Positions 27,144 to 47,981 of a DNA stretch of 64,000 nt are shown here, one piece after another. The notes beneath the pieces were generated by a model that was not told the origin of the DNA, ran no database searches, and saw only the letters and a list, made by a program, of their open reading frames with translations. The position numbers were made by a program, and so were the translations under genes. How positions within the stretch are numbered: position 1 is the stretch's first letter; the number at the start of each line of letters is the position of its first letter. This stretch comes from an uncultured Oscillospiraceae bacterium (GTDB lineage: Bacteria; Bacillota; Clostridia; Oscillospirales; Oscillospiraceae): assembly GCA_947625045.1 (NCBI GenBank), contig CANQMW010000015.1, positions 1,429 to 65,428 of the forward strand, read 5' to 3'.

Positions 27144-27221
27144 TCTCCCTTCCTCATCTTGGTTTGCCGCATCCCGCAGCCCCGCTTATTGAATTCTTGC
27201 CGAGGGGCAGCCGGGGCTTGT

Positions 27222-31138: not shown

Positions 31139-31830
31139 TTCCGCTGTCCTCTCTCTGTTCCGCTGTAATATTGAAAGCCCCGGCCGTTCCACGCCGCCAG
31201 GGCGTCTTCCCTTATGGCCTGGAGCACTGTCTCCAGGCCCGCCGGCTTTTCAAGCAAAACGCCGTCCCCGCCCAGTTCAAGCAGCGGCCGGATATCCGAC
31301 TCATACCGGTCGCCGGCGGACAGCGCCGCCCCGGCCGGGACGCCGTATCGCTCAAGGAGCATCCCCACGGCGTCCCGCTTGCTGAACGGCCCCGCCCCGG
31401 CATACGCCGTCGGGCAGACGATATCGTCGAAAAGCGCGCCGTCGATGCCCAGCCACGCCAGCGTATCCTGTATATTTTTGCGCGTATTGCTCGACAGGAG
31501 CACCAGCGGCGCGAGGGCCGCGAAGCCCCGGAGCGTCTCATTGGAGACGGCCTTCTCCCTGTCGATGTGCGCCGGCGACGTGTGCGCGTCGCAGTACGCC
31601 GTCCAGGCCGCCGGGTCGATGCCGCTGCGCAGGAAGAACTCCGTGGCCGAGCGGGCTTTTTCCGACTTGTAGGGGAGGATGCCCTCCCAGGCGAAGATGC
31701 GTTCCGTCTCCTCCCGCGTCAGGCCCTTTTCCGCCGCGAAGAAATCGGCCCGCATATCGTAATTGGCCCGGACCACGTCCTCCAGGTCATAGAACGTGCC
31801 GTCCACGTCAAAGAGTATCAGGCTATACAT
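31135..31830 (-). CDS. HAD family hydrolase/phosphatase
   Basis: MYSLILFDVDGTFYD (motif I) and GDRYESDI (motif IV). Confidence 0.75.
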   Translation of the reverse strand: MYSLILFDVDGTFYDLEDVVRANYDMRADFFAAEKGLTREETERIFAWEGILPYKSEKARSATEFFLRSGIDPAAWTAYCDAHTSPAHIDREKAVSNETLRGFAALAPLVLLSSNTRKNIQDTLAWLGIDGALFDDIVCPTAYAGAGPFSKRDAVGMLLERYGVPAGAALSAGDRYESDIRPLLELGGDGVLLEKPAGLETVLQAIREDALAAWNGRGFQYYSGTERGQRK

Positions 31831-33479
31831 CCTGTCCCTCCGTCATGGGCCGCAAGTATCGCCCGGAAGTCCGGCAGATCGGCCGGGTCGTTCATCCGCC
31901 TGCCGTCGCCGCCGAAGAATATGGAACGCACCGTGTCCAGACACCACCGGGCCAGCCTGTTGTTGTCCTCCTTCTGGAAGCAGTAGTCATTGGTCTTGTA
32001 AACGAAGAAGAAAAACAGCGCCGCCAGATATCTCTCCCCGTCCACATACTTCCTGAAGTAGTCGAACATCTCCCAAAACCGCTCTTCCGTATGGGCCTGG
32101 TCGTCCCGTATCTCGATCACGGGCTGGATGACGTACTCAAATTCCCGGGGCCCCACGGCGCCTCTGGGGTCTATCGCCCGGATGCTGTCGCCGTCCTTCA
32201 AAAGATTGCGCTTATGCAGGTCCCTGTGAAGGTAAAACAGCGGCGCGCCGTCAAAATAGGCGTGATACACCCGCCGGCATTTGTCCTCCAGTATCTTCCT
32301 GGTCTGGTAGGAAAAGGTGCGCCTGCTGGCGGAGTCCACATACTCCTCGAATTCCGACAGGACGTTGGGCAGCGCCGTGTCCCCGCAGAGCGCCGCCTCC
32401 GGGATAAGGGCGTCGTTCACGCTGTCAAAAAAGCTCCTGAGCGCGCTGTTTTCAGGGTCGAACCTGACCTGCAGGCCCGGTTTGACCGTTTTGAGGACCA
32501 GCATATGATAGCTCTCGTCATAGCCCAGCATCTCCGCCATGGTGTCCTTCGCCGCCAGCCGGTAATATGTGTACTCCTTGTGGAAGAAGAATTCCGACGG
32601 CGTGAACTTGACGATGATGCTGCCGTAGGCGCTGGACTGCGCCTCATACACGATGTTCGCTTCCGTCTGGAAGTTCATGGAATAGCTGGTGATGCCGTAC
32701 AGCGGCGCCACTTCCTCGTGCATGATGTTCTGCACGTTTCTGATCCACTGCGCCACGTTCCCGTTCTGGCTGCTGGCGGAGAGATACTTGTTTATGACCT
32801 GCAGCGCCTTTTCCTTTTCCGGCCCCCGGATGATCTTCTCATACAGCGCCTCCAGGAGGGGGATATCATGGGAATAGGTGACCTTCATCGTGTAGGGGTA
32901 ATCGAAGCAGAAATACCCCTTGGCGTCGGCCGGCATGTTATGGAATATGTACTTTTTCAGATGCCCGAAGTCATAGGACGCATACAGCAGCGGGAACCGG
33001 TAGGCGTCCGGCTCCATGACGTTGAAAAAGTCATCCCTGTCCACCCTCGTCCCGTCGAAACGGTGCAGCGCGGGCGCCAGCTTCCATGTCGTCAGCACAT
33101 AGTCGTATTCGTCCAGCAGCCCGAAATACTTGTCATACTGCTCCGTCGTGGCCAGCGGACAGACCGCGTTGGTGACGATGAGCTTTTCGCACGCATAGTT
33201 TTCATGAATATACCTGACGCCGTTGGCGACGGACTCAGGCCGGGAGCTGCCGCCCTGCACCGCCGGCGTATGATAGCGCTCTCTCAGCTCCTCCACATAG
33301 TTCCCCGACGCGACGATCACGATCTCGTCCGCGAAAACAGACTTCCTGCAGGCGTCGAATACATAGTCGATAACAGGCCGCCCATTCATATAGGTATACT
33401 GCTTGGGGCAGTCGGCGCCGAAGCGGGAGCCGATCCCCGCCGACATGATCATGATGATGTTCCTGCCGTGTTTTTTCAT
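31818..33479 (-). CDS. Fusion: IspD/TarI-like cytidylyltransferase plus APH/choline-kinase-like phosphotransferase
   Basis: The N-terminal IMSAGIGSRFGADCPKQY is the IspD signature. The C-terminal half has LHRDLHKRNLL (HxDxxxxN catalytic loop) and AIDPRG. Confidence 0.7.
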   Translation of the reverse strand: MKKHGRNIIMIMSAGIGSRFGADCPKQYTYMNGRPVIDYVFDACRKSVFADEIVIVASGNYVEELRERYHTPAVQGGSSRPESVANGVRYIHENYACEKLIVTNAVCPLATTEQYDKYFGLLDEYDYVLTTWKLAPALHRFDGTRVDRDDFFNVMEPDAYRFPLLYASYDFGHLKKYIFHNMPADAKGYFCFDYPYTMKVTYSHDIPLLEALYEKIIRGPEKEKALQVINKYLSASSQNGNVAQWIRNVQNIMHEEVAPLYGITSYSMNFQTEANIVYEAQSSAYGSIIVKFTPSEFFFHKEYTYYRLAAKDTMAEMLGYDESYHMLVLKTVKPGLQVRFDPENSALRSFFDSVNDALIPEAALCGDTALPNVLSEFEEYVDSASRRTFSYQTRKILEDKCRRVYHAYFDGAPLFYLHRDLHKRNLLKDGDSIRAIDPRGAVGPREFEYVIQPVIEIRDDQAHTEERFWEMFDYFRKYVDGERYLAALFFFFVYKTNDYCFQKEDNNRLARWCLDTVRSIFFGGDGRRMNDPADLPDFRAILAAHDGGTGCIA

Positions 33480-34945
33480 AAGGAGTCCGTCCCTCCCGTG
33501 GGAAGGACGCCCGTCATCCGGTCCATTCGCCCGTAGTAGTCCTTCTTCAAAAACGCGATGATCCGCTCGCCGCTCTTCCCGTCATGCTTCATGTGCTCCC
33601 GGACATATTTCACCCGCTCTTCCCGCTTGGGGTCCTGCCCCGCCAGCAGCGACTCCAGCTGCGAGATCAGTCCCTGTTTGTTCCGCACCGGATACATGTG
33701 ACGCGCCCACTGCTTGGCATCGGTATCAAAGTGCCACATGACCCCGCAGAAGATGATCGGCTTACCGGTAATAAATTCCTCGACCAGGAGCGACGTCGTA
33801 TCAGAAATAAAAACATCCGCCTCTTCAAAAGAGGGAAGATAGTCGCTATACTCGTCCAAATGTAAATTGTCCGTCTCTTCAAACAGTTTTTTGAATGCCG
33901 CGACATCATCCTCGGTCATCTCACCGGTCGCTATAAAATTGCCAAACATTTTAGGATGAGGACGGCATATCAGCTTATATTCCGGGTGATGGAGGAAGAA
34001 ATCGATCAAGGTATCCTTATACTTGAAAAAAGTACTTGCCTCCAGCCTTCCCTCCGTCAGCCACCGGGGAAGCCAAAGGACTGTCGGCTTTTCTTTGTTT
34101 ACTGCTTTCGTCTCTGTCTCATACAGATCAAACCGCGGATATCCGACGAACTCGATCTTTTTCCATTTTGCGCCGTACAGATCATGGTAGATCTTTTTGA
34201 GCATGTTTTGATACATCTCATTCTCAGTAAAAACAGCATAGGTATAGTCGGTCAGATTTTCCCTGTACACGGCCCGGCTGTCCCAATTCATTTTGCAATA
34301 CGCGTAAGGGATATGGACGACTTTCGTATAGGTAGAGAGCACTTCAGAACGGTACTGCGGCGGAAGATAGTTTTGATTCGACCTGGAGATCACAACATAG
34401 TCTGGATGCAATGCCCGCAGATCAAACCACGTATCCGTTTCGGCGTCATATCCGTTGATCGTCTCAGGATAAAAGCTCTTGCAGTACTCGTACGCGACAT
34501 TTTCTTCGCCATATATATTTGCTGTTATATCCGAAACATGTTTACTTTTACCCGTCTGCATCACCTTCTCCGGCAGCGCCAACAGGGTAACGTCAAAATC
34601 AGCATCCTTTACAGCCGCACGGAAGGCTGACATGCAGGCATTCCATGCCGCATGAAACTGGCAGATGAATACAATAGATACTTTTTTATCCCTATCTTTC
34701 TCCTTGTCGATCTTATCAACATACCAAAACATGCGGTTGCTTACTGCCGTGCGCATTCTCCTGTACGCAGGACGACGCCTGCACTTGAGTTCTTTCTCGT
34801 ATGCAAGCGTGGTAAATCTGCGGAAATAATGATTATTGATAAATGCGCTGACCTTTGCTCTTAGCCTTTTGATAGGTTTCCTTATAAACTTGTCAAAACA
34901 CCGTTTCAACGGAAGAACGATATGGTTCTTTATAAGCGCTTTCAA
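33476..34945 (-). CDS. CDP-glycerol/alditol-phosphate glycerophosphotransferase (TagB/TagF/TarL family), paralog 1
   Basis: 489 aa. VLWLPRW, ICRPHP and ISDTSSLLVEF blocks are present. The probable TTG start overlaps the upstream stop (TTGA). Confidence 0.75.
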   Translation of the reverse strand: MKALIKNHIVLPLKRCFDKFIRKPIKRLRAKVSAFINNHYFRRFTTLAYEKELKCRRRPAYRRMRTAVSNRMFWYVDKIDKEKDRDKKVSIVFICQFHAAWNACMSAFRAAVKDADFDVTLLALPEKVMQTGKSKHVSDITANIYGEENVAYEYCKSFYPETINGYDAETDTWFDLRALHPDYVVISRSNQNYLPPQYRSEVLSTYTKVVHIPYAYCKMNWDSRAVYRENLTDYTYAVFTENEMYQNMLKKIYHDLYGAKWKKIEFVGYPRFDLYETETKAVNKEKPTVLWLPRWLTEGRLEASTFFKYKDTLIDFFLHHPEYKLICRPHPKMFGNFIATGEMTEDDVAAFKKLFEETDNLHLDEYSDYLPSFEEADVFISDTTSLLVEEFITGKPIIFCGVMWHFDTDAKQWARHMYPVRNKQGLISQLESLLAGQDPKREERVKYVREHMKHDGKSGERIIAFLKKDYYGRMDRMTGVLPTGGTDSL

Positions 34946-36261
34946 GTGTTGGCCTCCTGTTTACTATTTAAATAATCTTTTTTGATATAATCGATAACCC
35001 TTTTTCCACTCATACCGTCAAAGTTTATCGAAGTATGTATATACGCGCCGCGGGCGGTCTTTTTGGGGTCGTCCCCCTCCAGCAGGCGGCAGAGACAGCT
35101 TTCTGCCTCATCCCAGCTCCCCGCCTGATACATCAGCCGGGCCCATTTCCGGGCCGCCCGGTCAAAATGGGATATCCTCCCGCAGTAAATGACCGGCTTT
35201 CCCGTGACAAAGGCCTCTATCAGCAGAGAGGACGTGTCGGACACGAAGATATCCGCCGCCGCGAACGCCGGCAGATAGTCGCCGGACTCGTCCAGCTCCA
35301 GCCCCGGCGTCTCGGAAAACAGCTTTCTGAACGCGGCCTCGTCCGCCGGGCTCATCTCGCCGGTGGATATGAAATTCTGGAACATCAGCGGGTGCGGCCG
35401 GCATATGAGCCGCGTCCCGGGATGGCCCCGGACGAACCGGACCAGCGCGTCCCTGTACCGGAAAAACGTGGACGGCTCCAGCAGGTCCCTGGTCGTCCAC
35501 CGGGGCAGCCACAGGATGGTCTTCTGCCCCGTATCCGGCGCCTTTTCCAGACCCTGGCACAGGTCCAGCCGCGGGTATCCCACGCATTGCACCTGCTTCC
35601 AGCCAGCTTTGAACATGCCCCGGAATATCCGTTCCACCATGGCCCGGTACGTCTCGTTTTCCGTGAACACGGCGTAGACGCTGTCCATGAAGTCGCAGCC
35701 GTACACCATCCTGCTGTCCCAGTTCATCTTGCAGTAGGAATAGGGGACATAGCATATCTTCGCGTAGGACGCGATGACCGCGCTGGCATAGCCCGGCTGC
35801 ACCTCTTTGTCATAGGGCCGGGACAGCACCACATAGTCCGGCGCCAGGCTCTCCAGGTCGAACCAGCGCCCCGACGACTCGTCATAGGCGTTGATCGTAT
35901 CCGGGTAAAACGCCCGGCAGAACTCATAGGCCAGGTTCTCCCCGAAGCCCTCCGCGGCCATGCCGTCCTTCGTCACCGCGCCGGCCGGGAGCGCCAGGAG
36001 GTATACCTCCAGCGCCGGGTCCTTCACCGCCGCCTCGAATACCGGCCTGCTGGCATTCCAATAGGCCGGAGAATAGCAGAAGAACGCCACCCGTATCCTC
36101 CGGCCGTCCCGGGGCCGCTGTTCGAGCCGGGCGACATGTTGGGCGGTCTGTGCCGCCCGGGCGATGTGCCGCCTCTTAAACCCCGGCTGCAGCATGCACC
36201 GCAGGCGTATCTCCCCGTCGTAGGGCACGAGCCGCCAGAAGATCCCCTTCAGTCTCTCCAT
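34942..36261 (-). CDS. TagB/TagF/TarL-family polyol-phosphate transferase, paralog 2
   Basis: 439 aa, colinear with paralog 1 (ILWLPRW, ICRPHP, VSDTSSLLIEAF). Confidence 0.75.
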   Translation of the reverse strand: MERLKGIFWRLVPYDGEIRLRCMLQPGFKRRHIARAAQTAQHVARLEQRPRDGRRIRVAFFCYSPAYWNASRPVFEAAVKDPALEVYLLALPAGAVTKDGMAAEGFGENLAYEFCRAFYPDTINAYDESSGRWFDLESLAPDYVVLSRPYDKEVQPGYASAVIASYAKICYVPYSYCKMNWDSRMVYGCDFMDSVYAVFTENETYRAMVERIFRGMFKAGWKQVQCVGYPRLDLCQGLEKAPDTGQKTILWLPRWTTRDLLEPSTFFRYRDALVRFVRGHPGTRLICRPHPLMFQNFISTGEMSPADEAAFRKLFSETPGLELDESGDYLPAFAAADIFVSDTSSLLIEAFVTGKPVIYCGRISHFDRAARKWARLMYQAGSWDEAESCLCRLLEGDDPKKTARGAYIHTSINFDGMSGKRVIDYIKKDYLNSKQEANT

Positions 36262-37364
36262 GAACGCCCATCCCCTCGCTCCGCTCCGTATCCCGCGGCG
36301 ACCTGCTCCGCCACGGCGGCCAGCTCAAAACCCGCCAGGGCCGCGGCGGCGCTCCCGGGCGCTCCCGAGAGGGCCGTTATCTCCGCCGCCCAGGTGCCCG
36401 CGTCCAGCGGCAGCAGCCTGCATCCGGCGACGCGGGCTTCCTCCGGCACATGCTCTGAGCAGACAACAGGCAGCCCCGCCGCCCGGGCCTCGATGACCGC
36501 GATGCCGAAGCCCTCAAAGAGGCTGGGGAACGCGAACGCGTCCATGGCCCAGTAGAGCCGCTCTATATGCTCCGAAACGCCGGCAAACAGCACCCGGTCC
36601 GCTATCCCCAGGCGCCGGGCCTTTTCCTCCAGCGCGGGCTTGTCCTCGCCCTCGCCCGCCAGCAGCAGAACAGCCTCCGGCTTATGCTTCACCGCCTCTG
36701 CCAGCACGTCCAGCAGGAAGCCCTGGTTCTTCTGGCAGCACAGCCGTCCCACATGGCCAATGACGAATCTTCCGTCCAGGCCCAGCTCCCGGCGCACCTC
36801 TTCCCGCGCCGCCGGGTCGAATCGGAATCTGTCCACATCTATCCCGTTGGGGATGAACTGAAAGCCACGTTTATCCAACTCATGAGCAGCAAACAGGAAC
36901 GCCGCCGCGTCCCCAGAGCAGGCCCAGAGGGCCGTTGCGTCCTTCGTATACCGCTCTCGCGCCCAGCTATGTATGGCCAGCTTTATTGGCCGGGTGGCAC
37001 TTTTCCGCAATGCCGTGTTGTGGCTATGGGCGATGCGCACCGGCACGCCTTCTTCCCTCGCGATGCGAAGGTAGGCAAGGGATAAGCCCTGAAAGGCGTT
37101 CAGGTGCAGCACGTCATAATGCCGCTCCCGCAGGAGCGCCCGGAACCGCCGGTGGTTCTCCCCTACATTTCGCATATTTCCGGACAGCTCATAAAACCGC
37201 ACGCCCCGGGCCTTGAGCCTGTCCGTGAACACACTGTCACAAAGCTGCGCCGCCGCGATATCCACTTCCAGCGCCGGCACATCCAGCCGCGTCAGCACGC
37301 TGCAGAGGAACGACTCTATCCCCCCGGACGCCCAGTTCTCGCACAGGCAGCATACCCGTCTCAT
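36249..37364 (-). CDS. GT4 (GT-B fold) glycosyltransferase
   Basis: The FPSLFEGFGIAVIEARAAGLPVVCS block contains the E-x7-E motif. The ATG directly follows the upstream stop (TGAATG). Confidence 0.8.
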   Translation of the reverse strand: MRRVCCLCENWASGGIESFLCSVLTRLDVPALEVDIAAAQLCDSVFTDRLKARGVRFYELSGNMRNVGENHRRFRALLRERHYDVLHLNAFQGLSLAYLRIAREEGVPVRIAHSHNTALRKSATRPIKLAIHSWARERYTKDATALWACSGDAAAFLFAAHELDKRGFQFIPNGIDVDRFRFDPAAREEVRRELGLDGRFVIGHVGRLCCQKNQGFLLDVLAEAVKHKPEAVLLLAGEGEDKPALEEKARRLGIADRVLFAGVSEHIERLYWAMDAFAFPSLFEGFGIAVIEARAAGLPVVCSEHVPEEARVAGCRLLPLDAGTWAAEITALSGAPGSAAAALAGFELAAVAEQVAAGYGAERGDGRSWRD

Positions 37365-37928
37365 TCAGCTCTCCCAGCCGTGTTCCGTCTGCTCCGCGTC
37401 CAGCTGCTCCTGCATGAGCCGCTGTACGGTCTTCTCCATCAGCTCGGCACGGGTGGTCTCATACAGCTTTTGCAGCGCACGAGCGCTTGTCACGCCGCCG
37501 TCTATGCCCGCGGCCCTGCTCACGGCCTTTATCTGCTCCCGGACCGTCGACAAGCCCGTGATCGCGCCCGTTTTTCCCACAAATATGGCCCCGCTGGAAA
37601 CGCCGTTCCGCCGGGCATAGGCCAAAAGCTCCTCCCGCAGACTCTCCGGCAGATGGATGACCCGCTCCGCTGTCCTGATCTCGCCGGAATTGACCTCCTC
37701 CACCGTCAGCGCCAAAAGCTCCTGCGGCCGGATGCCCGCAGAGACCGTCGCCCGCATAGCGAGATAGGCCAGTACTTTGCGCATCCTCCTCGCCGTCTTC
37801 AAAAGCGCAAGATACTGATCCCGCGTGAGCTCGTTTTGCTCCGGCGCCTGCGCGTCGGCCGGTTTCTGAAGTCTTTCCCTGGAAAGGCGCCTTGCCGTTT
37901 GCTTTTGTACCTGAAGTATCTCCTGCAT
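37365..37928 (-). CDS. Integrase-fold protein lacking the HxxR box and the Tyr-bearing C-terminal segment (single module)
   Basis: Start MQEILQ at 37928, with GGGAGG 7 nt upstream. LTRDQYLALLKTA...SAGIRPQELLALTVEEV matches box I of tyrosine recombinases. The HxLRH position reads SARALQK, and the protein ends in LMQEQLDAEQTEHGWES with no LGH...Y segment. Confidence 0.6.
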   Translation of the reverse strand: MQEILQVQKQTARRLSRERLQKPADAQAPEQNELTRDQYLALLKTARRMRKVLAYLAMRATVSAGIRPQELLALTVEEVNSGEIRTAERVIHLPESLREELLAYARRNGVSSGAIFVGKTGAITGLSTVREQIKAVSRAAGIDGGVTSARALQKLYETTRAELMEKTVQRLMQEQLDAEQTEHGWES

Positions 37929-37930
37929 CC

Positions 37931-39430
37931 TCAAACCTCCCAGCCCGCTGTGAGCTGCTCCTGCTCCGCCTGCCGGTCCATCGTCTGCTCCACCAGCAGG
38001 GCAAAATTGGCCTCCACCGCCGCTTTCGTGGACTTATAAAGCCGCCGCAGACACTGGGGATTGCACTTCTCGCCGGGCAGTCCCGCCTCCTCGCCCAGTT
38101 TCGCGATGGACTGCACGATGCCAGCACGGCACATGGGCCTGTTCTGGTTCGACAAAAAGATGGGCCCCGCGCCGATGTCCTGCCGCTCCGCGTAGGCCAG
38201 AAGCTCCCGGCACAGACACCCGGGCAGATGCAGCATGCTGCGCGTGCCGCTGGAGACCACCGTCATGCCGCCGGCCTTCGCCGCCTCCACCGTCACCTTA
38301 TCCAGCTGCTGCACCGGCAGGTCGCAGGAGGCGAACAGCTTCACCAGCAGATACTCCCGCTCCTTGTCCAGCCGCTTCGCCGTTTGCAGCAGCTGTAAAT
38401 ATTCGTTCCGGGTCAGCTCCGGCTGGGGGTTGTCCTCCTGCTTTGGCAGTTCCGAAAGCTGATACTCCCGGTGGCCCATATAGTCCAGAAACCCATTCGC
38501 CACGATGGCAAAGCCGTTGATCGTGTTGGGGGCATAGCCTTTTTCCCGCAGCAATTCGACCCACTGGGCAAGGGTCCCCCGGCGGATACGCTTATCCGCC
38601 GGCAGATCCTGATAGAACTGCTTCAGAATGCCGCTGTACTGCTGGGGAGCAGATATACGTCCTTTGGCTTGCAGCCCGGCCATGTATCCCTCAATGTCCT
38701 CGTGGGTCATCCGGACGCCGGGATCATCTATGACTGCCCCGCGCTCGGTCTTTTGCGCCGGAAGCGGTTTCCCGCGCCGTTTTGGGAGAACAGGCAGGCG
38801 CTCGGCCTCCGCCTGCCGATCCATGAGCTGTACCGCCATATCGACGGCCCGGGCCTCCGCATCCGCCTGCCGGTTCATGAGCCGTTCCACCATGCCGGGA
38901 GCCTGAGCCTCCGCATCCGCCTGCCGGGCCATGAGTCGTTCCACTGTATCGGCGGCCCGGGCCTCCGCGTCCGCCTGCCGATTCATGATCTGTTCCATCA
39001 TATCGGCAGCCCGGGCCTCCGCATCCGCCTTCGCGGCCCGATACAGCTTCCGCAGCGCGCTGGGACGGCACTTCTCTTCGTCCAGCTCTGCCGAACAGCA
39101 TAGGTTATGCAGGAACCTGGATACCTGCGTCGCGTTGTAAGGCCGCCCGCTTCGCGTGATGAACACAGGTCCGGACCGGACGCTCTTCCACGCGGCATAC
39201 TCCTCCAGTTCCTCCCGCAGGCCCGCTGCCAGCGGCACCACGTCATGTTCCACTTTCAGCTTGCCCGCCCGGACGGCTTCCACCGTCAGCTCCGGCAATC
39301 CCAGTATGGACACGCCGGTGGTCGCCATCACCTTCACCAGCAGGTAAGCACGCTCATCATTCGATCCCTTTGCCGTGTCCAGAAGATGCAGATACTCCTC
39401 CCGGGTGATATCCGCGCCCACAGTCCACAT
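37931..39430 (-). CDS. Integrase-fold protein with two nucleophile-less modules, a SAM-like N-domain insert and an 18-aa repeat linker
   Basis: Start MWTVGADITREEY at 39430, with GGAGAAAGGAGA upstream. The modules start at ITREEYLHLLDTAK and LTRNEYLQLLQTAK. The middle has an integrase N-terminal-like segment (HEDIEGYMAGLQAKG...NTINGFAIVANGFLDYM). The HxxR positions read SALRK and QCLRR, and no catalytic Tyr helix is present. Confidence 0.6.
   Translation of the reverse strand: MWTVGADITREEYLHLLDTAKGSNDERAYLLVKVMATTGVSILGLPELTVEAVRAGKLKVEHDVVPLAAGLREELEEYAAWKSVRSGPVFITRSGRPYNATQVSRFLHNLCCSAELDEEKCRPSALRKLYRAAKADAEARAADMMEQIMNRQADAEARAADTVERLMARQADAEAQAPGMVERLMNRQADAEARAVDMAVQLMDRQAEAERLPVLPKRRGKPLPAQKTERGAVIDDPGVRMTHEDIEGYMAGLQAKGRISAPQQYSGILKQFYQDLPADKRIRRGTLAQWVELLREKGYAPNTINGFAIVANGFLDYMGHREYQLSELPKQEDNPQPELTRNEYLQLLQTAKRLDKEREYLLVKLFASCDLPVQQLDKVTVEAAKAGGMTVVSSGTRSMLHLPGCLCRELLAYAERQDIGAGPIFLSNQNRPMCRAGIVQSIAKLGEEAGLPGEKCNPQCLRRLYKSTKAAVEANFALLVEQTMDRQAEQEQLTAGWEV
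38798..39031 (-). repeat. 54-bp in-frame tandem repeat, about 4.3 copies (18-aa unit, consensus like hhERLMNRQADAEARAxD)
   Basis: Read directly in both DNA and protein: MMEQIMNRQADAEARAAD / TVERLMARQADAEAQAPG / MVERLMNRQADAEARAVD / MAVQLMDRQAEAE. Confidence 0.85.
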
Positions 39431-39513
39431 CTTCTTGGATCTCCTTTCTCCGCCCGCGGAAGGATAGGTCAGAATTGCACTACCGTTCCCCATGACAGAG
39501 GTCTGACCCCTCC

Positions 39514-39553
39514 AAAATGAAAAACCATCCTGCATGTGGACCATGCAGGATGG
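39514..39553 (-). terminator. Rho-independent terminator (minus strand)
   Basis: Perfect 12-bp stem CCATCCTGCATG-TGGAC-CATGCAGGATGG, followed on the minus strand by TTTTTCATTTT. Confidence 0.8.
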
Positions 39554-39575
39554 AAAAATGAGACGCCATGGGTAT

Positions 39576-39613
39576 AGAAAAGCAGGCCGTTGAAGGGCAT
39601 TGTTTCAACGGCC
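39576..39613 (-). terminator. Rho-independent terminator (minus strand), first of two in tandem after the recombinase gene
   Basis: 10-bp stem GGCCGTTGAA...TTCAACGGCC, followed on the minus strand by TGCTTTTCT. Confidence 0.65.
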
Positions 39614-39782
39614 TCAATGCGTATGCCAAGTTTGCTTGATTTGGATGTTTTTTACCGCCGTATACAGAGCATACCACTTGATTAATCTGTAGGGATGTGG
39701 TAATATTCTCTCAACTGTTAGGGCGGATTATCAGATATAATTATAATGTTTGTCGCTTAAGTGCAATTTTGTTGATGCTTCG

Positions 39783-40622
39783 CTAACTGACAAGTCCCAG
39801 CCGCTCCAGCGTCCTGGCATGCTCCGCACCGGTGGTGATGAGGTATATCCGCGTGGTGTTGATGGATGAGTGCCCCAGCACGTCCGCCAGCTTTACGATA
39901 TCGTGACAGGCCCGGTAGAACGTAGTGGCAAACAGGTGCCGCAGGTTGTGGGGAAACACCTTCCCCGGCTCCACCCCCGCCAGCGCGCACACCGCCTTCA
40001 TCTCCGCCCATATCTGCCGCCGGCTCAGACTCTTCCCGCTTCTGGTGAGAAATATCTCGCCGGAGGCGATTTTTCGTTTCCGGGCATATTTCAGCAGCTT
40101 CCGGCATAGCTTCCCCGGCAGCATGATGGTCCGTATCTTCCCCTTCAGCGCTATCTCCGCCCGGCCCATCTGAGCCGCCTCCACCGTTATGTACCGTACC
40201 TCGGAGACACGGATGCCTGTTCCGCATATGGTCTCCATGAGCAGGGCAAGCCTGGGTCTTCCGCTGTCTCGGGCCGCTGTCACCAGCTTTTCATATTCCG
40301 CCTTGGTGAGGTCCTTTCCCGGATCCCGGAAGGCCCGGCGCTGGAGGCGCAGGGCCCTGACGCAGCAGTCCTGCCGGCCGCAGAACTTAAAGAACGCGTT
40401 CACCGCCGCCACCTTCACGTTCACTGTGGCCGGCGTATAGTCCTGGGTGAGCAGATGTTCCTTCCAGGCCACAGCGGCCTCCTTCGTCACCTCACGGCCG
40501 GCCAGCCAGGCCATGAACTCCCCTATGATCCGCACATACATCTTCACCGTGGCCGGCGCCCGCTCCTCTTCCGCCAAAAAGCAAGTAAACTCTTTGACCC
40601 GTCTCTCTGTGATGGTGTGCAT
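39783..40622 (-). CDS. Tyrosine site-specific recombinase (XerC/XerD-like), apparently catalytically intact
   Basis: Start MHTITERRVKEF. TGIRVSE (Arg), KGK, PHNLRHLF (HxxR) and LGHSSINTTRIYL (His/Tyr) are all present. Confidence 0.85.
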   Translation of the reverse strand: MHTITERRVKEFTCFLAEEERAPATVKMYVRIIGEFMAWLAGREVTKEAAVAWKEHLLTQDYTPATVNVKVAAVNAFFKFCGRQDCCVRALRLQRRAFRDPGKDLTKAEYEKLVTAARDSGRPRLALLMETICGTGIRVSEVRYITVEAAQMGRAEIALKGKIRTIMLPGKLCRKLLKYARKRKIASGEIFLTRSGKSLSRRQIWAEMKAVCALAGVEPGKVFPHNLRHLFATTFYRACHDIVKLADVLGHSSINTTRIYLITTGAEHARTLERLGLVS

Positions 40623-40802
40623 ACCAACACCCCCGTTTCTTGTAGTAGCTCTCATTTTACACAAGCCGGGGGCACTTTCCCAAGCCCATCTCACGGGGAC
40701 AACCATCAAAATCGCCGAAATTCCGGCCCATTAAACCGAAAAATCGTCCATCCATAATCCATATTTTCCCTTATCCTCTTATGTGCAAAGGGGGAGGATC
40801 AT

Positions 40803-41144
40803 GTGGAAAAGACCAATCACCTGTCAGATAATCTGAGGGCCTATCAATACACCCAGGGCAAGTCCCTGGCAGAGCTTTCTCTGGAATTCGGCATTGCCAG
40901 ATCCACCATCCAGTCGGTCATGGCAGATGGAAATACCACTCTCGATACCCTGATCCGTATAGCATGCGCCATGCACTGCTCGCTGGATGAATTGGTCTTT
41001 GGCGGCCGGCCTGCCAAACAGATGGACGGCATCCATTCCTTCATGGGCCGGTTGGAGTGGTTCGCCGGTCTCCCGGCTGAAAAGCAGGAAAAGTTCGTGT
41101 TCCATCTGCTGGAAATGCTCAAGCTGCTGGAACATGATGAATGA
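40803..41144 (+). CDS. XRE-family helix-turn-helix transcriptional regulator
   Basis: GTG start, with GGGGGAGGA upstream. QGKSLAELSLEFGIARSTIQSVMADGNTTLDTLIRIACAM is an HTH_3 pattern. The gene is divergent from the recombinase. Confidence 0.75.
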   Translation: MEKTNHLSDNLRAYQYTQGKSLAELSLEFGIARSTIQSVMADGNTTLDTLIRIACAMHCSLDELVFGGRPAKQMDGIHSFMGRLEWFAGLPAEKQEKFVFHLLEMLKLLEHDE

Positions 41145-41496
41145 CGTATCCATCCCGGTGGAAGATATCGTTCAGATATATGATCTGTTGTACCGCCTTG
41201 GCATCACCGCCAGCCATACCGGTTTCTTCCATACCGTTTATGCCGTTTACCTCGCCGCAAAGCAGCCTGACCGTTTGCTGCTGGCCGCAAAGTGGCTCTA
41301 TCCTGAAGTGGCCCGGCACTACGGCATCACCTGTTACTGCGCGGTGCGCAGTATCTACATTGCCTCCAGGACCGCCTGGCTTACGAACCGGGACCTTCTG
41401 GAGGAGCTGGCTGCGCGCCCATTGCCTCACAGGCCGGCCGCCGCGGAGTTTCTCGCCATTCTGGCCTCCTATTTCAACTGCCGCTTCGCCGCATAG
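41134..41496 (+). CDS. Spo0A C-terminal (DNA-binding) domain-like protein without receiver domain
   Basis: Start MMNDV overlaps the XRE gene's 3' end. LGITASHTGFFHTVYAVYL...AKWLYPEVARHYGIT...AVRSIYIASRTAW parallels the Spo0A_C helix pattern (GY.YL..AI ... LYP.VA..Y.TT...VERAIRHAI). Confidence 0.6.
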   Translation: MMNDVSIPVEDIVQIYDLLYRLGITASHTGFFHTVYAVYLAAKQPDRLLLAAKWLYPEVARHYGITCYCAVRSIYIASRTAWLTNRDLLEELAARPLPHRPAAAEFLAILASYFNCRFAA

Positions 41497-41534
41497 AGGC
41501 TGTACTCCCCAGCCTCAGCTCTGCTGCGCCTTTC

Positions 41535-41613
41535 CCGCGCCGACAAAAATTGGTTTTTATAATCGGATGAAAAATGCAGAACATATAGCCGACAAGCAAA
41601 CAGGGCGGCATTG
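41535..41613 (+). repeat. Copy B of the 79-nt dispersed direct repeat (partner at 19163..19241)
   Basis: See copy A. Located between the Spo0A_C-like and SASP-like genes. Confidence 0.8.
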
Positions 41614-41687
41614 CGAAATGGCCGCGAGACCGTTTTGGACAGCCGATCCTCTGCCTGTCAATGCAGCGGAAAGGAGTAGAAACGAAA

Positions 41688-41948
41688 ATGGCTAAGAATT
41701 CCAATCAGCTTGTGAACCCCAATGCCCGTGACGCGATGGACCGCTTTAAGATGGAAGCCGCCACCGAGGTGGGCGTCAACCTGAAGCAGGGCTACAACGG
41801 CGACCTGACCAGCAAGCAGGCCGGTTCCGTCGGCGGCCAGATGGTCAAAAAGATGTGTCCCGTACGAACTGTGAAATTTAGGAGGAACGACAGAAATGCG
41901 ATGGGGCATGAAGTGGAGATAAAGTACATAACAGGGATCACGATTTAG
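41688..41948 (+). CDS. Alpha/beta-type small acid-soluble spore protein (SASP)-like protein with a non-canonical C-terminus
   Basis: RBS AAAGGAG. NPNARDAMDRFKMEAATEVGVNL...TSKQAGSVGGQMVKKM matches both SASP signature blocks. After MVKKM the sequence (CPVRTVKFRRNDRN...) no longer resembles SASPs. Confidence 0.6.
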   Translation: MAKNSNQLVNPNARDAMDRFKMEAATEVGVNLKQGYNGDLTSKQAGSVGGQMVKKMCPVRTVKFRRNDRNAMGHEVEIKYITGITI

Positions 41949-41960
41949 GAGGGCTTTGAG

Positions 41961-42206
41961 ATGCGAAAACTGGTCAAGTGTGCGTTCAATATGGACACTG
42001 CCTGCGTGGAACTGCGCTTCTCTGATGGCAGCCGGATCGACATCGACACCGTTGGCGTGGAGAACGAGATTGCCGACAATCTGTATCAGCGCAGCGATCT
42101 GGACTGGCTGATCGATAACAAGCCGCTGGAATACGCCAGGCTCGTCCTTGGAGGCAAGTTGGAGGGATATGTACAAGGGACAGCGGAACATAGGTTGGAA
42201 GATTGA
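41961..42206 (+). CDS. Small conserved hypothetical protein, MGE-associated type
   Basis: 81 aa, RBS TAGGAGGG. From memory MRKLVKCAFNMDTACVELRFSDGS...NLYQRSDLDWLI resembles a small family common on clostridial elements. This is unverified. Confidence 0.5.
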   Translation: MRKLVKCAFNMDTACVELRFSDGSRIDIDTVGVENEIADNLYQRSDLDWLIDNKPLEYARLVLGGKLEGYVQGTAEHRLED

Positions 42207-42273: not shown

Positions 42274-43239
42274 TCACTCAGTCCGTTCCGAATTTTGAAC
42301 GATTTGCTTTTTCATTTCGTCAACATCCGCCTCTGTCAAACTTGCGCGATAGTCAATGTGCTTTGGATTGATTTGCTCCGATAAATCATTTACATTGCAA
42401 CAATCATAGACCACATTTTGTACTCTAATTATTCTTTCTGGCTTTTTTTGCAGTTCTAAATCGTCCTGAGAAAAAATAACGAAGTTCATCCCCACATGAC
42501 TTTGGAAGCTCGGATACGATATCCCCTGAACTGAAGCATCTTTATCCCTAAGAGCATTAACCAAATATTGTGTTGGTAGATACTCCAAATCTGCGTCTCC
42601 TCTACGAATGGGACGCGAGAACTGGAATGACAACTCTCTTGCGGTTGCATTTAAGTAAATGTTTATATCCTCGTCATCTATGAGCATCGCCTTTAAGTCT
42701 TGCCCGGTGCGTGGTAACTTAATTATCTTAATTGGCGACGGGTTTACATACTCTACTACATTCACAAGCTCTAAGATTGACGGACGAACCTCCGAGACTG
42801 CTGTGTATATGTTATCTGTTACATATAAGTCGGGAATTCCCTTTGGACTGGCTCGGTTTGGACCGGCCTTCTCTACGGGTGGCACGCCAACATCAGAAGG
42901 ATCAGAATACCCTCTGATTAGGCTCTTTCTAGGTATCCAAACCGGCATTTTCTCATTATCATGTCCCAAATAATCTATGTGCTTTTGAACTGTTAATTTC
43001 CACCCTGGGATAATCCTTGCTCTATAGAATACCGATCCCACAGGAACTTCAACTGTGAAGTACTTTGCTAGCAAGTCCGTAACTTCATCAATGAACTCTC
43101 TGTCTTCCTTTCGGGGAATAAAACGTGCATTGTGAATCAGGTTATAACAAAACATGTTCCATCGATGATGGAAATATGTACTTTTTGCCGCAAATTCAAA
43201 GTTCTTCATTCTCTTTTTTAGTTCTTGCTCTTCCTTCAT
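42274..43239 (-). CDS. RES domain protein with helical N-terminal extension; no adjacent Xre/DUF2384-type antitoxin
   Basis: The R-E-S triad is in context: SVFYRARI, NRASPKGIPDLYVTDNIYTAVSEV and QGISYPS. The start is either ATG 43239 (RBS AGAGGAAG) or GTG 43266, which overlaps the hsdR stop (GTGA). Confidence 0.7.
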   Translation of the reverse strand: MKEEQELKKRMKNFEFAAKSTYFHHRWNMFCYNLIHNARFIPRKEDREFIDEVTDLLAKYFTVEVPVGSVFYRARIIPGWKLTVQKHIDYLGHDNEKMPVWIPRKSLIRGYSDPSDVGVPPVEKAGPNRASPKGIPDLYVTDNIYTAVSEVRPSILELVNVVEYVNPSPIKIIKLPRTGQDLKAMLIDDEDINIYLNATARELSFQFSRPIRRGDADLEYLPTQYLVNALRDKDASVQGISYPSFQSHVGMNFVIFSQDDLELQKKPERIIRVQNVVYDCCNVNDLSEQINPKHIDYRASLTEADVDEMKKQIVQNSERTE

Positions 43240-43262
43240 TTCATCTTCCTCTAAAGCAAAAA

Positions 43263-46232
43263 TCACTGCGCTTCTCTCAAGCTTTTATAAATCTCTTCCG
43301 TAAATATTCCCAGCACCTGGCGTTTGAGTTCCTCGTCACTCAGGAGCAGCGAGAAGAAATCCTGGTTTTGTGAGAGACCCTCAATCAGCGCGTCATCGAT
43401 GTCATCGAAATAGGAAAACTCAAAATCCTTAACGGTATTGCTCTTGGCGCTGGCCCGCAGTTTTTCCGACTTCAAGAGAATATCCCGTATCTGGAGCATC
43501 GCCTTGACCGCCACATCCGTGTCATAGGCCCTGCCGGTGCGGCTGTTTATCTCAGCAATAATTTCGGACAGGCGCTCTTCCTTTGCTTCTGTGAGGCCGA
43601 ATGTCTCCGCCGTCGGGAGTTTCACCACCGGCTGTGCGACGAGCTTCGGCTCGACGTGTTCCGCTTCTTTCTTCTGCACAAAGTTGGTTGCCCTGATTTT
43701 ACCGTCCAGATCATAGCCGCCGCCCGGATGCTTGATATTGATATACGCCAGCAGATATGTAATGAAATTGTACTTTTTATGCAGGTCAGTGTCTTCAAAA
43801 CAGGATACCTGCAGCAAAAACTCATAGAACCGAACAAAGTGCCGCAGCTGGGCAACGATCTCCTGCTGGGTAAGCGGCTCATATTGCTCGATCATGTTCT
43901 TTGCCCGTTTGAAATAGAACGTGAGTTTCTGCTTGTCCCTGGGCGTTATATTCGCCTTATAGAGCAGTCCGTTTGCCCTATCAATATCATCGGGATCGAG
44001 TACGGCATAGGCGTCGATCCTAGCTTCCAGATCATAGATCGCTGTCGGCGTTACGGAATTGGACAGCAACGTGGTCGTATAATACGGCGCAAAGGCAGTC
44101 TTGATTTCCTCATAGCTGTTCACAAAATCCAGCACAAAAGTCTTTTTCTCAAAGGGCGGACAGATACGGTTCAGCCTGGAGAGTGTCTGTACCGCCGACA
44201 CTCCTTTGAGTTTTTTCAGCACATACATCGCGCAGAGTTTCGGCTGGTCGAACCCGGTCTGATACTTGTTCGCTACCAGCAGAACCTGATACTCATTCTC
44301 GTCAAACTCTCTCGGAAGCCGATTCTCCGGGAACCCGTTCATGGACGCCTCGGTGTACTCCGTCTCGTCGTCCGGCAGGGTCACCTTGCCAGAGAATGCC
44401 ACCAGTGCCTTAATATCGGTATAACCCTTCTTCTTGGTGTAATCCTCAAAAGCCTGCCGGTACTTCACTGCTCCCTGCCGGGAGGCAGTTATCACCATGG
44501 CCTTTGCCATGCCGCCAAGTTCCGGCATTACCGTGGTACGGAAATGCTCAACTATGACTTCCACTCGCTGGGCGATATTTGTCTCATGCAGTTCTACGAA
44601 ACGTGCAATCTGCCGCTTGGCGTCCGATGTTTTGCAGCGAGGGTCCTCCTCGATCTCCTTGTTGATTTGATAAAAAGTCTTATACGTCGTGTAATTCTGG
44701 AGCACATCAAGTATAAAACCTTCCTCAATAGCCTGCTTCATAGAATAGATGTGGAAAGCCTCCCGCTGCCCCTTTTTGTTCAACCGACCGAAAAGCTGGA
44801 TAGTCGTAGGCTTAGGCGTGGCCGTGAAAGCGAACATGGACACGTTCGCCTGTTTGCCATTCCTGCGAATCTCATCGGTAATCATGTCCTCGACATCGCC
44901 GTAATCCGGTTCGCCAGCACCAAGAGACTTGGTTACGGCGGCCATATCCTTGCCAGCCGTGGAGGAGTGCGCCTCGTCAATGATCACAGCAAACCGTTTT
45001 TCTTTCAGCCCCTTTACGCTGTCCACAATATAGGGGAATTTCTGAATGGTGGTAGCGATGATCTTCGTGTTGCCATTGAGTGCATTCGCCAGATCGTTGG
45101 AATTACACTTGTCATCCATCACTCGAATCAGGCCAGCCTTGTGTTCCATGCCCATGATCGCCTTTTGCAGCTGCCGATCCACTACTACCCGGTCAGTGAC
45201 TATGATAATATTATCAAATATAATATGGTTGTTCGCGTCATGCAACGATGTCAATCGGTGCGCCAGCCAGGCGATGGAGTTGGTCTTGCCGGAACCGGCG
45301 CTGTGCTGGATCAGGTAATTCTGTGTGGTGCCGTTCGTGCGCACATCCGCCAGAAGCTGGCGGATAACGTCAAGCTGGTGGTAACGGGGGAATATGATGT
45401 TCTCCGACTTCTTCGTCTTGCCAGTCAGTTCGTCGCGGCTCTCGTTCGCGTCAATGAAGATGAACTTGCTGACAAGGTCGAGAATCGTATCCTTTTTCAG
45501 GATGTCCTCCCACATATAAGAGACGCTGTACTTATCCTCAAAAACAGGGTTGCCCGCACCGGCATTCACGCCCTCGTCGCGGCCCATGTTGAACGGCAGA
45601 AAGAATGTGGCATTTCCGGCCAGTTTGGTGGTCATATAGACCTGCTCAAGGTCCAGAGCGAAGCAGACAAGGCACCCAGCTTTAAAGCGGAACAAGCGGG
45701 TCCCAGGATCACGATCCGTGCGGAACTGATAAATCGCGTCCTGATAAGATTGCCCGGCGAGGTTGCATTTCAGTTCAAAGGACATAATGGCAAGGCCGTT
45801 GAGGAAGATTACAAGGTCGATGCGTTCCTCATCGCTTGCCCATACTTCCTCCATTACAGAGAATATATTCTTTTCGTACTTAGCCAACAGTTCCTTGTTG
45901 AAAGTGGTCGCCGGTTTTGTGTACATTAGTTCCAACTGCATATTGGAGATCTCGACGCCATGCTTCAATATATCCAGCAGACTGCCGTGCGCCTTCGTCG
46001 CCTCAGCATTGATGAAGCTGACGATTGTTTCCTCCAAATCGGCCTTGTATATCTTCCGCAGGGCGTCCATCGTCTCTGCCTGGGTATCCCATAGGAACCG
46101 AAACAGCATCTCCCGGTCCATGGCGAAGCGATGGTCATAGTCCGTTTGGCTGCGGATGATATATCCATTATCCTGGGAGAGGCGCTCCATTATGTAGTGC
46201 TGATATTCTTTTTCGGATAGGATGTAATTCAT
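43263..46232 (-). CDS. hsdR: Type I restriction enzyme R subunit
   Basis: 989 aa. N-terminal PD-(D/E)xK (IDLVIFLNGLAIMSFELK), SF2 helicase motifs (QHSAGSGKT, VIIDEAHSS) and a C-terminal helical domain are present. Confidence 0.9.
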   Translation of the reverse strand: MNYILSEKEYQHYIMERLSQDNGYIIRSQTDYDHRFAMDREMLFRFLWDTQAETMDALRKIYKADLEETIVSFINAEATKAHGSLLDILKHGVEISNMQLELMYTKPATTFNKELLAKYEKNIFSVMEEVWASDEERIDLVIFLNGLAIMSFELKCNLAGQSYQDAIYQFRTDRDPGTRLFRFKAGCLVCFALDLEQVYMTTKLAGNATFFLPFNMGRDEGVNAGAGNPVFEDKYSVSYMWEDILKKDTILDLVSKFIFIDANESRDELTGKTKKSENIIFPRYHQLDVIRQLLADVRTNGTTQNYLIQHSAGSGKTNSIAWLAHRLTSLHDANNHIIFDNIIIVTDRVVVDRQLQKAIMGMEHKAGLIRVMDDKCNSNDLANALNGNTKIIATTIQKFPYIVDSVKGLKEKRFAVIIDEAHSSTAGKDMAAVTKSLGAGEPDYGDVEDMITDEIRRNGKQANVSMFAFTATPKPTTIQLFGRLNKKGQREAFHIYSMKQAIEEGFILDVLQNYTTYKTFYQINKEIEEDPRCKTSDAKRQIARFVELHETNIAQRVEVIVEHFRTTVMPELGGMAKAMVITASRQGAVKYRQAFEDYTKKKGYTDIKALVAFSGKVTLPDDETEYTEASMNGFPENRLPREFDENEYQVLLVANKYQTGFDQPKLCAMYVLKKLKGVSAVQTLSRLNRICPPFEKKTFVLDFVNSYEEIKTAFAPYYTTTLLSNSVTPTAIYDLEARIDAYAVLDPDDIDRANGLLYKANITPRDKQKLTFYFKRAKNMIEQYEPLTQQEIVAQLRHFVRFYEFLLQVSCFEDTDLHKKYNFITYLLAYINIKHPGGGYDLDGKIRATNFVQKKEAEHVEPKLVAQPVVKLPTAETFGLTEAKEERLSEIIAEINSRTGRAYDTDVAVKAMLQIRDILLKSEKLRASAKSNTVKDFEFSYFDDIDDALIEGLSQNQDFFSLLLSDEELKRQVLGIFTEEIYKSLREAQ

Positions 46233-46275
46233 AATCCGTACCCCTTCTCATATGTTACGCTATGTTCAAAATAAA

Positions 46276-47316: not shown

Positions 47317-47969
47317 TGCTCAATTCCCTTCTTCCCTGTGACACATTCAAAAACAATAGACTGTCTATATTTCTCAAGAGCATCAAGTTGTCTCTGCAAA
47401 CTAGATGATAATTCCGCAATCTTACTACAACGACTATCTAAAAAGTCAGCTATTGATTCTTGCTCGTCTAAGGGGGGATAAGGAATGTATGTATTTCCAA
47501 AATCTTCAAAAGCAATGTTTTTCCCATCACGTAAACTCATAGTATGAGAATTCATTTCACTAATAAAACACTTGTCCTTAAACAGGTACTTGTAGAATCG
47601 ATCACAGATCTGTCGAACCGGATAAAACACCTGATAAGCAGGTGAAACTACACCTTCATATTTTGAGTACTCAAAGCCACCTTGAAAACTTCTAAGGCTA
47701 ATACAAAAATCGCCTTTATGAATTGTTTTGAAGGCCGAGAGGTCTGTGTCATCTTTCACTTTAACGACATTAGCACTTGTCAGTTCTTCAAGTAATGCCT
47801 GCGGAATAACGCCAAAATGTTGTGTTGGCGAAAGAAGCTGCAATTCAATATTATTTCCCTTTTCATTTCGCTGAGTAAATATGTACTTTCCTTTGTAGAA
47901 TTCCCAATAGTCAGGGACTTCACCAAGCCACTCAGCAAGAGGATTAACTGTCAGTGCCATAATCATCAC
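47313..47969 (-). CDS. hsdS: Type I R-M specificity subunit, half-size (single target-recognition domain)
   Basis: About 215 aa with one TRD plus a conserved helix (PPLDEQESIADFLDSRCSKIAEL...IVFECVTGKKGI). The best-spaced start is ATG 47960, 8 nt after AAGGAG. Confidence 0.8.
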   Translation of the reverse strand: MMIMALTVNPLAEWLGEVPDYWEFYKGKYIFTQRNEKGNNIELQLLSPTQHFGVIPQALLEELTSANVVKVKDDTDLSAFKTIHKGDFCISLRSFQGGFEYSKYEGVVSPAYQVFYPVRQICDRFYKYLFKDKCFISEMNSHTMSLRDGKNIAFEDFGNTYIPYPPLDEQESIADFLDSRCSKIAELSSSLQRQLDALEKYRQSIVFECVTGKKGIEQ

Positions 47970-47981
47970 TCCTTATACGCC

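Follow-up and report, generated by a model that had tools for sequence, protein, structure and literature searches.

Gene organization at the head of the operon

A 64,000-nt stretch of DNA from an uncultured Oscillospiraceae bacterium (GenBank assembly GCA_947625045.1, contig CANQMW010000015.1, positions 1,429 to 65,428), which as a whole is termed the window, carries a teichoic-acid-like glycopolymer operon led by two genes that encode relatives of a neighbouring tyrosine recombinase. Three modules with the tyrosine recombinase fold are encoded in 37365-39430, and none has a working active site. Between these genes and the gene of the intact recombinase is a spacer that displays the features of an invertible promoter segment, or inverton. 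The genes at the head, in the order of transcription, and a repeat within one of them are as follows.

39783-40622, minus strand: intact tyrosine recombinase of 279 amino acids, the presumed invertase of the adjoining switch; Pfam matches to Phage_integrase (1e-25) and Phage_int_SAM_1
37931-39430, minus strand: dead recombinase paralog of 499 amino acids, with the ribosome binding site GGAGAAAGGAG before its ATG start; a 537-amino-acid open reading frame (ORF) is its upstream extension
38801-39030, minus strand: tandem repeat of 54 nt (18 amino acids) in 4.3 copies within the 499-amino-acid gene, duplicating the tail-helix motif
37365-37934, minus strand: second dead paralog of 187-189 amino acids, a catalytic-domain-like module only; Arg I is kept, and Arg II, both His and the Tyr are lost

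The 499-amino-acid protein begins with a catalytic-domain-like module (module 1, residues 1-122), which is followed by a long repeat helix (residues 123-209) and a disordered linker. A SAM-like core-binding domain (residues 241-335), a second catalytic-domain-like module (module 2, residues 336-457) and a helical tail ending in GWEV complete the protein.

Recombinase paralogs without an active site

The two dead proteins match the Pfam family Phage_integrase (PF00589) with 28.1 and 34.2 bits, against a cut-off of 27.1, and the matches cover only profile positions 3-125/134 of 172. Phage_int_SAM_4 is weakly matched by residues 278-315 of the 537-amino-acid ORF. By tblastn, the three dead modules are about 32% identical among themselves, and each is 29-31% identical to the intact recombinase. 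A first-pass annotation, made by a model from the sequence, had described three catalytic-fold modules and a SAM-like domain in the larger ORF, and both descriptions are borne out. In Pfam and NCBIfam, the leading proteins match recombinase families only; no membership of the NusG/KOW-like (UpxY) or UpxZ families was found.

The active site was assessed by residue-level alignment with the intact enzyme, whose R138, K160/K162, H225, R228, H251 and Y260 are invariant across 15 homologs. At these positions, module 2 of the 499-amino-acid protein has P, S/T, Q, R, D and T; module 1 has S, a gap, S, R and N, followed by the repeat region; and the 189-amino-acid protein has R, a gap, R, Q, Q and E/H. 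The earlier proposal that the R-H-R-Y set is lost is correct for His and Tyr, which are absent from all three modules (there is no Tyr beyond the '..LY' of the former HxxR helix), but not for the arginines. Arg I survives in the 189-amino-acid protein only; Arg II is left in modules 1 and 2 of the 499-amino-acid protein and nowhere else. Distant members of the dead family show the same residue losses and the same ..GW ending. As judged from the alignment, both genes encode catalytically dead paralogs of the adjacent recombinase, and strand exchange should be impossible for these proteins. In databases the dead proteins currently go by 'hypothetical protein' or 'integrase/recombinase XerD'. Annotation should not treat them as integrases or as mobile-element markers.

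The nucleophile segment is replaced in the dead modules and not merely deleted, which agrees with the first-pass reading of the C-terminal helix. An AlphaFold2 model (predicted local distance difference test score, pLDDT, of 83.5) displays a single 40-residue helix, residues 231-270 of the C-terminal module, that runs from the former HxxR helix to the end and terminates in a conserved ..EQEQL..GW. The corresponding helix of module 1 is 87 residues long and is made of the 4.3 tandem 18-amino-acid repeats. Dead proteins stop 2-5 residues past the conserved GW. Intact recombinases extend about 19 residues past the Tyr (..EH.R.LERLGLV), a segment missing from the dead proteins. The best 46 Foldseek matches of the model in the PDB are tyrosine recombinases without exception. 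XerA and XerD are the closest solved structures, and a profile of the dead family matches these two at 1e-13 to 6e-9.

Maintenance of the dead genes

The core of the dead family is a protein of about 285 amino acids consisting of a SAM-like domain, a dead catalytic domain and the tail. When 1.84 billion cluster representatives (clusters at 50% identity) were searched with the family profile, 648 representatives were found at E<=1e-30. The best 150 all reach the ..EQEQL..GW tail and end there. Invariant residues of the family include L252, E254, Q265 and W270 of the new tail.

Genes of this kind could be decaying, functionless duplicates of the recombinase gene, and the loss of all catalytic residues but one is what such decay might leave. 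The orthologs speak against this. The ORF is intact in all 10-11 orthologs of the dead genes. The median pairwise ratio of nonsynonymous to synonymous substitution rates (dN/dS) is 0.25 for the 499-amino-acid gene and 0.31 for the 189-amino-acid gene, close to the 0.21 of the active recombinase, and hundreds of diverged members keep the invariant residues, the new tail included. Decay is regarded as very improbable. The substitution pattern points to purifying selection on the dead genes, and the claim made at first pass that they are maintained is upheld.

The copy number of the 18-amino-acid repeat is 1, 4-5 or 7 among orthologs that are otherwise 65-98% identical, and the helix length of the 499-amino-acid protein may be a tunable or fast-evolving property. 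The dead paralogs derive from the invertase family, and a chimeric family member, P0268, serves as an illustration. The N-terminal half resembles an invertase (45% identity to the window recombinase, with GIRVSE and KGK) and the C-terminal half a dead-type protein (NPRCLRKLY...EQEQLLVGWNV), a composition that suggests recombination between adjacent paralogs.

The predicted invertible promoter

The inverton sits inside the 352-bp spacer between the intact recombinase gene and the 499-amino-acid ORF. It comprises the following features.

39470-39771, no strand assigned: invertible promoter segment, 302 bp with both repeats, in the OFF orientation in the window
39760-39771, minus strand: left inverted repeat CAAAATTGCACT (outer arm ACAAAAT plus centre TGCA), which fits the family core-site consensus ACRRAAT-N4-ATTYYGT
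39470-39481, plus strand: right inverted repeat CAGAATTGCACT
39678-39706, plus strand: sigma-70-type promoter, TTGATT, 17 nt and TG-n-TAATAT (TGgTAATAT, an extended -10), a single exact match at consensus level
39576-39614, minus strand: terminator-like hairpin 1 with T-run (AGGCCGTTGAA...TTCAACGGCCT GCTTTTCT), read from the sequence, conserved in loci L003 and L014 and inverted in L015
39515-39553, minus strand: terminator-like hairpin 2, a 12-bp stem with T-run

The repeats were found by comparison of the homologous spacers of about 40 related loci (designated by L numbers) and were confirmed afterwards; a generic repeat finder applied to 37000-41500 does not have the 12-bp repeat among its 25 longest pairs. 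In the related spacers, inverted repeats are present a few bases past the recombinase stop codon, with the second copy about 240 bp on. The inverted repeat that flanks the window inverton reads CA(A/G)AATTGCACT. The pattern CARAATTGCACT has exactly two matches in the 64 kb, inverted relative to each other, with 0.03 expected by chance. In the clade of the window the repetition is confined to the outer arm and the centre, with degenerate inner arms. Rfam detects no known RNA family anywhere in the window.

Of 139 related loci, 123 have repeats at the corresponding position. The inner segment of these 123 invertons has a median length of 238 bp (187-367), the repeat has a median of 19 bp, and the palindromic core site ACRRAAT-N4-ATTYYGT is typical of tyrosine-recombinase substrates. 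Most have, at a conserved position, a promoter with a 17-nt spacer and usually an extended -10. The internal promoter points toward the cargo, the surface-structure genes behind the switch, in 35 loci (ON) and away from it in 81 (OFF); seven are ambiguous.

Both orientations of the segment are seen when loci are compared. The inner segment of L015 is inverted relative to that of the window (80.7% identity over 306 nt) whereas the flank is in direct orientation (91%). The corresponding values for L003 against L015 are 90.8% inverted and 92.9% direct. L029 and L032, two loci of the isolate 'Oscillospiraceae bacterium 50-16', show 97% identity of the inverted inner segment and 85% of the direct flank, and L025 and L029 are a further pair with the segment in opposite orientations. 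L015, L009 and L010 represent the ON state, with the homologous promoter aimed at the dead genes.

On the basis of these comparisons the spacer holds a predicted invertible promoter, which would be OFF in the window. The promoter there is directed away from the operon and would fire into the 3′ end of the recombinase gene. The two terminators belong to the invertible segment, face the operon in the OFF orientation only and would block read-through into it. A flip would place the promoter before the dead paralogs and the glycopolymer genes. The first-pass annotation had correctly listed two hairpins with T-runs, but took them to separate the flagged genes from the intact XerC-like gene. This part is superseded: the separating sequence is a predicted invertible promoter bounded by inverted repeats, and the XerC-like protein is the intact recombinase, its presumed invertase. 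The intact recombinase presumably flips the adjoining segment, given that its gene lies directly upstream and that its family goes together with such switches. The distance from its stop codon to the left repeat is 11 nt in the window and has a median of 5 nt over the 123 related loci.

The OFF-state promoter is antisense to the recombinase 3′ end (39678-39783), and convergent transcription could lower expression of the invertase in OFF cells. In the isolate 50-16, the invertible segments of paralogous loci are 92-97% alike, as against 85-88% for the flanks (L029 vs L032, L025 vs L029). This suggests concerted evolution of these switches or exchange between them.

Recurrence of the head module and its cargo

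A scan with the dead-family profile, restricted to one genome per species, gave 130 matches, of which 80 were kept. The head module, which consists of an intact recombinase, an inverton and a dead paralog, recurs with surface cargo at at least 80 loci, nearly all of them in Oscillospiraceae of the animal or human gut. The expectation that related loci would also start with dead genes is confirmed. Several metagenome-assembled genomes and the isolate 50-16 have at least 4-5 dead-paralog loci each. Cultivable carriers include Anaerotruncus sp. G3(2012), with locus L074, and the isolate 50-16, with L022, L025, L027, L029 and L032. An intact recombinase is situated upstream, on the same strand, in 38 of the 43 dead-gene loci for which 8 kb of upstream DNA is available. 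No recombinase is present within 8 kb upstream in L046, L064, L070 and L077, and L054 has only a degenerate recombinase fragment over this distance; in all five there is no convincing repeat just upstream of the dead gene. These copies could be orphans, or the cargo of their loci may be very long.

Two layouts are found. Type A consists of recombinase, inverton and dead gene. In type B, a FIVAR surface protein of 900-1400 amino acids is encoded between the inverton and the dead gene, and the repeats are palindromes of 20-29 bp, for example ACCACAGAAT-TCAC-ATTCTGTGGT.

The cargo of the window is the following operon.

19430-37364, minus strand: teichoic-acid-like glycopolymer operon; the lower boundary is approximate

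It includes genes for a GT4 glycosyltransferase, two TagF-like phosphotransferases (Glyphos_transf), an IspD-like cytidylyltransferase, an epimerase, YfhO, HAD proteins, an aldolase and a PRK-type kinase. The GT4 gene (36249-37364) abuts the 189-amino-acid ORF with no gap. The TGA/ATG junction described at first pass is present, and the co-transcription of the dead genes with the glycopolymer genes that was proposed from it is counted as right, as a prediction from the gene order.

A specific association of the dead genes with glycopolymer synthesis, also proposed at first pass, is not sustained. The cargo includes S-layer proteins, FIVAR and VWA adhesins, pilins and MMPL transporters as well. 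The first gene after the dead gene or genes was assigned in 59 loci. It encodes a GT2 glycosyltransferase in nine, an ABC-2 exporter in nine, a GT4 glycosyltransferase in seven and a nucleotidyl transferase in six. MMPL, SLH S-layer proteins and VWA adhesins account for four each, and the remainder consists of Tip pilin, BspA-LRR and others. Within a genome the heads are nearly the same and the cargo differs: in three genomes with one head class, the intact proteins are 91-98% and the dead proteins 93-100% identical.

The diversity of cargo bears on a role apart from nucleic acids, for example as a coiled-coil scaffold or an adaptor by which surface structures are assembled or exported. The long conserved amphipathic tail helix, the helical 18-amino-acid repeat of variable copy number, the near-neutral or acidic character of the window protein and predicted co-expression with surface cargo at all loci are consistent with such a function. 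The cargo, on the other hand, is biochemically unrelated between loci (glycosyltransferases, ABC-2 exporters, SLH proteins, pilins, MMPL) while the dead protein is near-identical within a genome, and the sole constant partners are the invertase and the switch. Neither a signal peptide nor a membrane segment is evident in the sequences. A scaffold function is deemed improbable.

The converse comparison started from the intact recombinase. A metagenome scan gave at least 590 matches, and about 56 loci had enough downstream DNA. All of these about 56 loci have invertons, and a dead paralog directly past the inverton is clear in about 24 and weak in three. The dead paralog is a frequent accessory of the switch family and not an obligate part, because only about 24 of the about 56 invertons carry a clear copy; overall, a dead paralog accompanies about 45% of the invertons of this recombinase family. 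In loci without it, the inverton is followed by a DUF4379 zinc-finger protein, by SLH proteins or by another divergent partial-integrase protein. The DUF4379 protein, a treble-clef zinc-finger protein of about 385 amino acids, is first behind the switch in seven of 23 dead-paralog-free invertons; examples among L091-L170 are L096:7197-8348, L108:7088-8242 and L135:5706-6872. L091:2523-3791 encodes a different protein, of 423-435 amino acids, with a partial Phage_integrase match, and L165:4122-5426, whose product is 43% identical to it, probably represents the same type.

These numbers bear on the possibility that the dead proteins are obligate structural partners, that is, silent subunits of a XerC/XerD-like heterotetramer needed to invert their own switch. 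The dead proteins are paralogs of the invertase with the same two-domain architecture and are always beside the switch, and the degenerate inner arms in the clade of the window could require a second binding specificity. About half of the invertons of this recombinase family, however, have no dead paralog. Most core sites are symmetric palindromes that suit a homotetramer. The dead proteins are not catalytically competent, as their catalytic residues are absent, and with two dead subunits in a tetramer both strand exchanges could not be completed. Moreover, the dead genes of an OFF locus are behind two terminators, so that OFF-to-ON inversion would proceed without their products. Little probability is attached to an obligate partnership.

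The DUF4379 proteins are relevant to a further alternative, in which the dead paralogs regulate transcription as activators, antiterminators, roadblocks or trans-locus repressors. The recombinase clamp would serve only as a DNA-binding scaffold, and inversion would be untouched. The dead genes lead phase-variable surface loci as upxY/upxZ do in Bacteroides, invertons without them often start with the putative nucleic-acid-binding DUF4379 protein (the seven of 23 above), and signature residues of the SAM-like domain are kept. Against this, the type B dead gene sits after a cargo gene, the positive charge of the proteins is much reduced, and no operator-like conserved DNA was identified besides the recombinase core sites. 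Regulation at the level of transcription is thought rather unlikely.

Possible role in switching

In the reading preferred here, the dead paralogs are produced in the ON state only and modulate switching as non-catalytic factors; this reading is judged about as likely to be right as wrong. Accessory factors for recombinase-mediated phase variation had been among the roles suggested at first pass, which appears to be the right direction. The dead genes are the first to be transcribed from the switch and are in a transcript predicted only for the ON orientation. Both recombinase domains are retained in their products; missing are the active site and the C-terminal segment that an active subunit donates to its neighbour. 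A long conserved amphipathic helix takes the place of this donated segment. Tyrosine-recombinase tetramers show half-of-the-sites activity and exchange C-terminal segments between neighbouring subunits, and it is because of this exchange that capping or poisoning by a non-donating subunit is proposed. The dead proteins could join or cap invertase-DNA complexes, or they could sequester invertase subunits. Either process would alter the rate or direction of inversion.

As sister heads within a genome are near-identical, the product of one ON locus should reach sister switches too. Such reach in trans would give feedback on the number of surface loci that are ON. In function it would resemble the UpxZ cross-talk of Bacteroides, with recombination as the step affected. 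In an extended form of the proposal, the dead copies are diffusible 'state reporters' that bind the invertase or the shared core sites of sister switches, and so count or limit ON loci or latch the ON state. This extension is tentative and is offered as a possibility on the doubtful side. If true, it would be a counterpart, at the level of recombination, to the mutual exclusion exerted by UpxZ, with a pseudo-enzyme as its basis.

Several observations weigh against a role in modulating the switch. The net charge of the dead family is -2 to +13, compared with +19 to +27 for the invertases, a loss of 10-25 positive charges. The 499-amino-acid protein of the window is slightly acidic (net charge -3, isoelectric point 6.2), and the 189-amino-acid protein has a net charge of +5. 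DNA binding by both proteins, suggested at first pass, is at best putative, and the loss by the family of most of the positive charge tells against a simple picture of this kind. Many invertons of the class lack a dead paralog, and the effect may be subtle or unrelated to switching. The share of loci assembled in the ON orientation is no different whether a dead paralog is present (5/26) or absent (7/26; p=0.74). Distances between intact proteins across loci correlate only modestly with those between dead proteins (Pearson 0.43, Spearman 0.17), and this correlation does not discriminate between models. Finally, the other two contigs that carry the protein of the window or a 98% relative are both OFF, and the predicted ON junction of the window's allele has 0 matches in a scan of metagenome contigs. 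Opposite orientations are known from comparisons between strains and between paralogous loci, and the window's allele has been seen only OFF.

Phase variation of surface structures shapes the dealings of gut bacteria with phages, immunity and adhesion, and the control logic of multiple switches per genome is largely unknown outside Bacteroides. In an abundant and poorly studied gut family, a modular head is reused before teichoic-acid-like polymers, S-layer proteins, pili and adhesins. Should switching indeed be tuned by the dead paralogs, these would stand as a clear example of a pseudo-enzyme that regulates its parent enzyme. They would also provide a handle for locking surface phenotypes ON or OFF.

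Neighbouring genes in the window

Just upstream of the recombinase gene is a defence and mobilisation island (42274-54450, minus strand) with a G + C content of 38-52%. It has genes for a RES-domain protein, a Shedu SduA-like protein, an AAA_14/DUF4143 ATPase and a MobA/MobL relaxase. It also has a type I restriction-modification system (HsdR, HsdS, HsdM) in which a TIR-domain gene is wedged between hsdR and hsdS. The possibility that the intact recombinase belongs to this adjoining low-G + C island (42-54 kb) as its integrase was considered and rejected: its family remains beside the inverton at more than 120 loci whose upstream contexts are unrelated.

The interval between the island and the recombinase (40803-42206, plus strand) encodes an HTH_3 regulator divergent from the recombinase, a Spo0A_C-like protein, an alpha/beta-type small acid-soluble spore protein and a DUF6061 protein. 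By their predicted products, these small genes indicate a spore-forming Clostridia host.

Comparison with known systems

A Clostridia-dominated inverton class, 'group 139', with a previously unpublished repeat motif, was tied to an adjacent tyrosine recombinase, 'invertase group 35', in the hCom2 study (Microbiome 2025, PMC11892184). Examples in Intestinimonas butyriciproducens and Clostridium sp. D5 have repeats of 14-26 bp and an inner segment of 206-228 bp; reads back both orientations, and a tyrosine recombinase is beside nearly every member (PMC11892184). In that study the recombinase appears only as a 'non-regulatable' neighbouring gene, and a dead paralog behind the promoter is not mentioned (PMC11892184). 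The inverton class of the window is probably group 139, an assignment based on taxonomy (Firmicutes_A/Clostridia hosts, including Intestinimonas of the Oscillospiraceae), geometry and the adjacent recombinase, and not on repeat sequences. No description of the dead paralogs was found in the literature on inactive or pseudo tyrosine recombinases and on Oscillospiraceae invertons. An invertible promoter beside a tyrosine recombinase is of a known kind; a conserved and widespread dead paralog under the switch is apparently undescribed.

Bacteroides capsular polysaccharide loci have invertible promoters followed by upxY and upxZ, whose products are made only when the locus is ON and are able to act on others. 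UpxY resembles NusG, UpxZ has no relation to recombinases, and transcription elongation is the step at which the two act. As in the bacteria described here, there are several phase-variable surface-glycan loci per genome that are led by small genes, and the dead paralogs share the position and multi-copy distribution of the UpxY/UpxZ type. The leaders of window-type loci, in contrast, are dead copies of the invertase, and each locus has its own invertase. By analogy, the upxY/upxZ pair may be the closest functional counterpart of the dead paralogs.

In Clostridioides difficile, the tyrosine recombinase RecV inverts short elements upstream of surface and motility genes (cwpV, flgB, cmrRST). Termination contributes to the OFF state of these switches, one distant recombinase serves all of them, and the cwpV promoter is outside the invertible element. 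Both this system and that of the window are tyrosine-recombinase switches of Clostridia, but no dead paralog is known to take part in the RecV system.

At the fim switch of Escherichia coli, FimB and FimE, two paralogous tyrosine recombinases encoded upstream of the switch, are beside an invertible promoter of about 300 bp. Both are catalytically active, and expression of one paralog depends on the orientation of the switch, which results in a directional bias. Paralogous recombinases and a switch of about 300 bp are features in common with the window, where the dead paralogs are, however, inactive. Both partners are likewise catalytically competent in XerC/XerD, unlike the dead paralogs. The closest mechanistic analogies would be orientation-dependent FimE at fim and the silent subunits of Xer-type tetramers.

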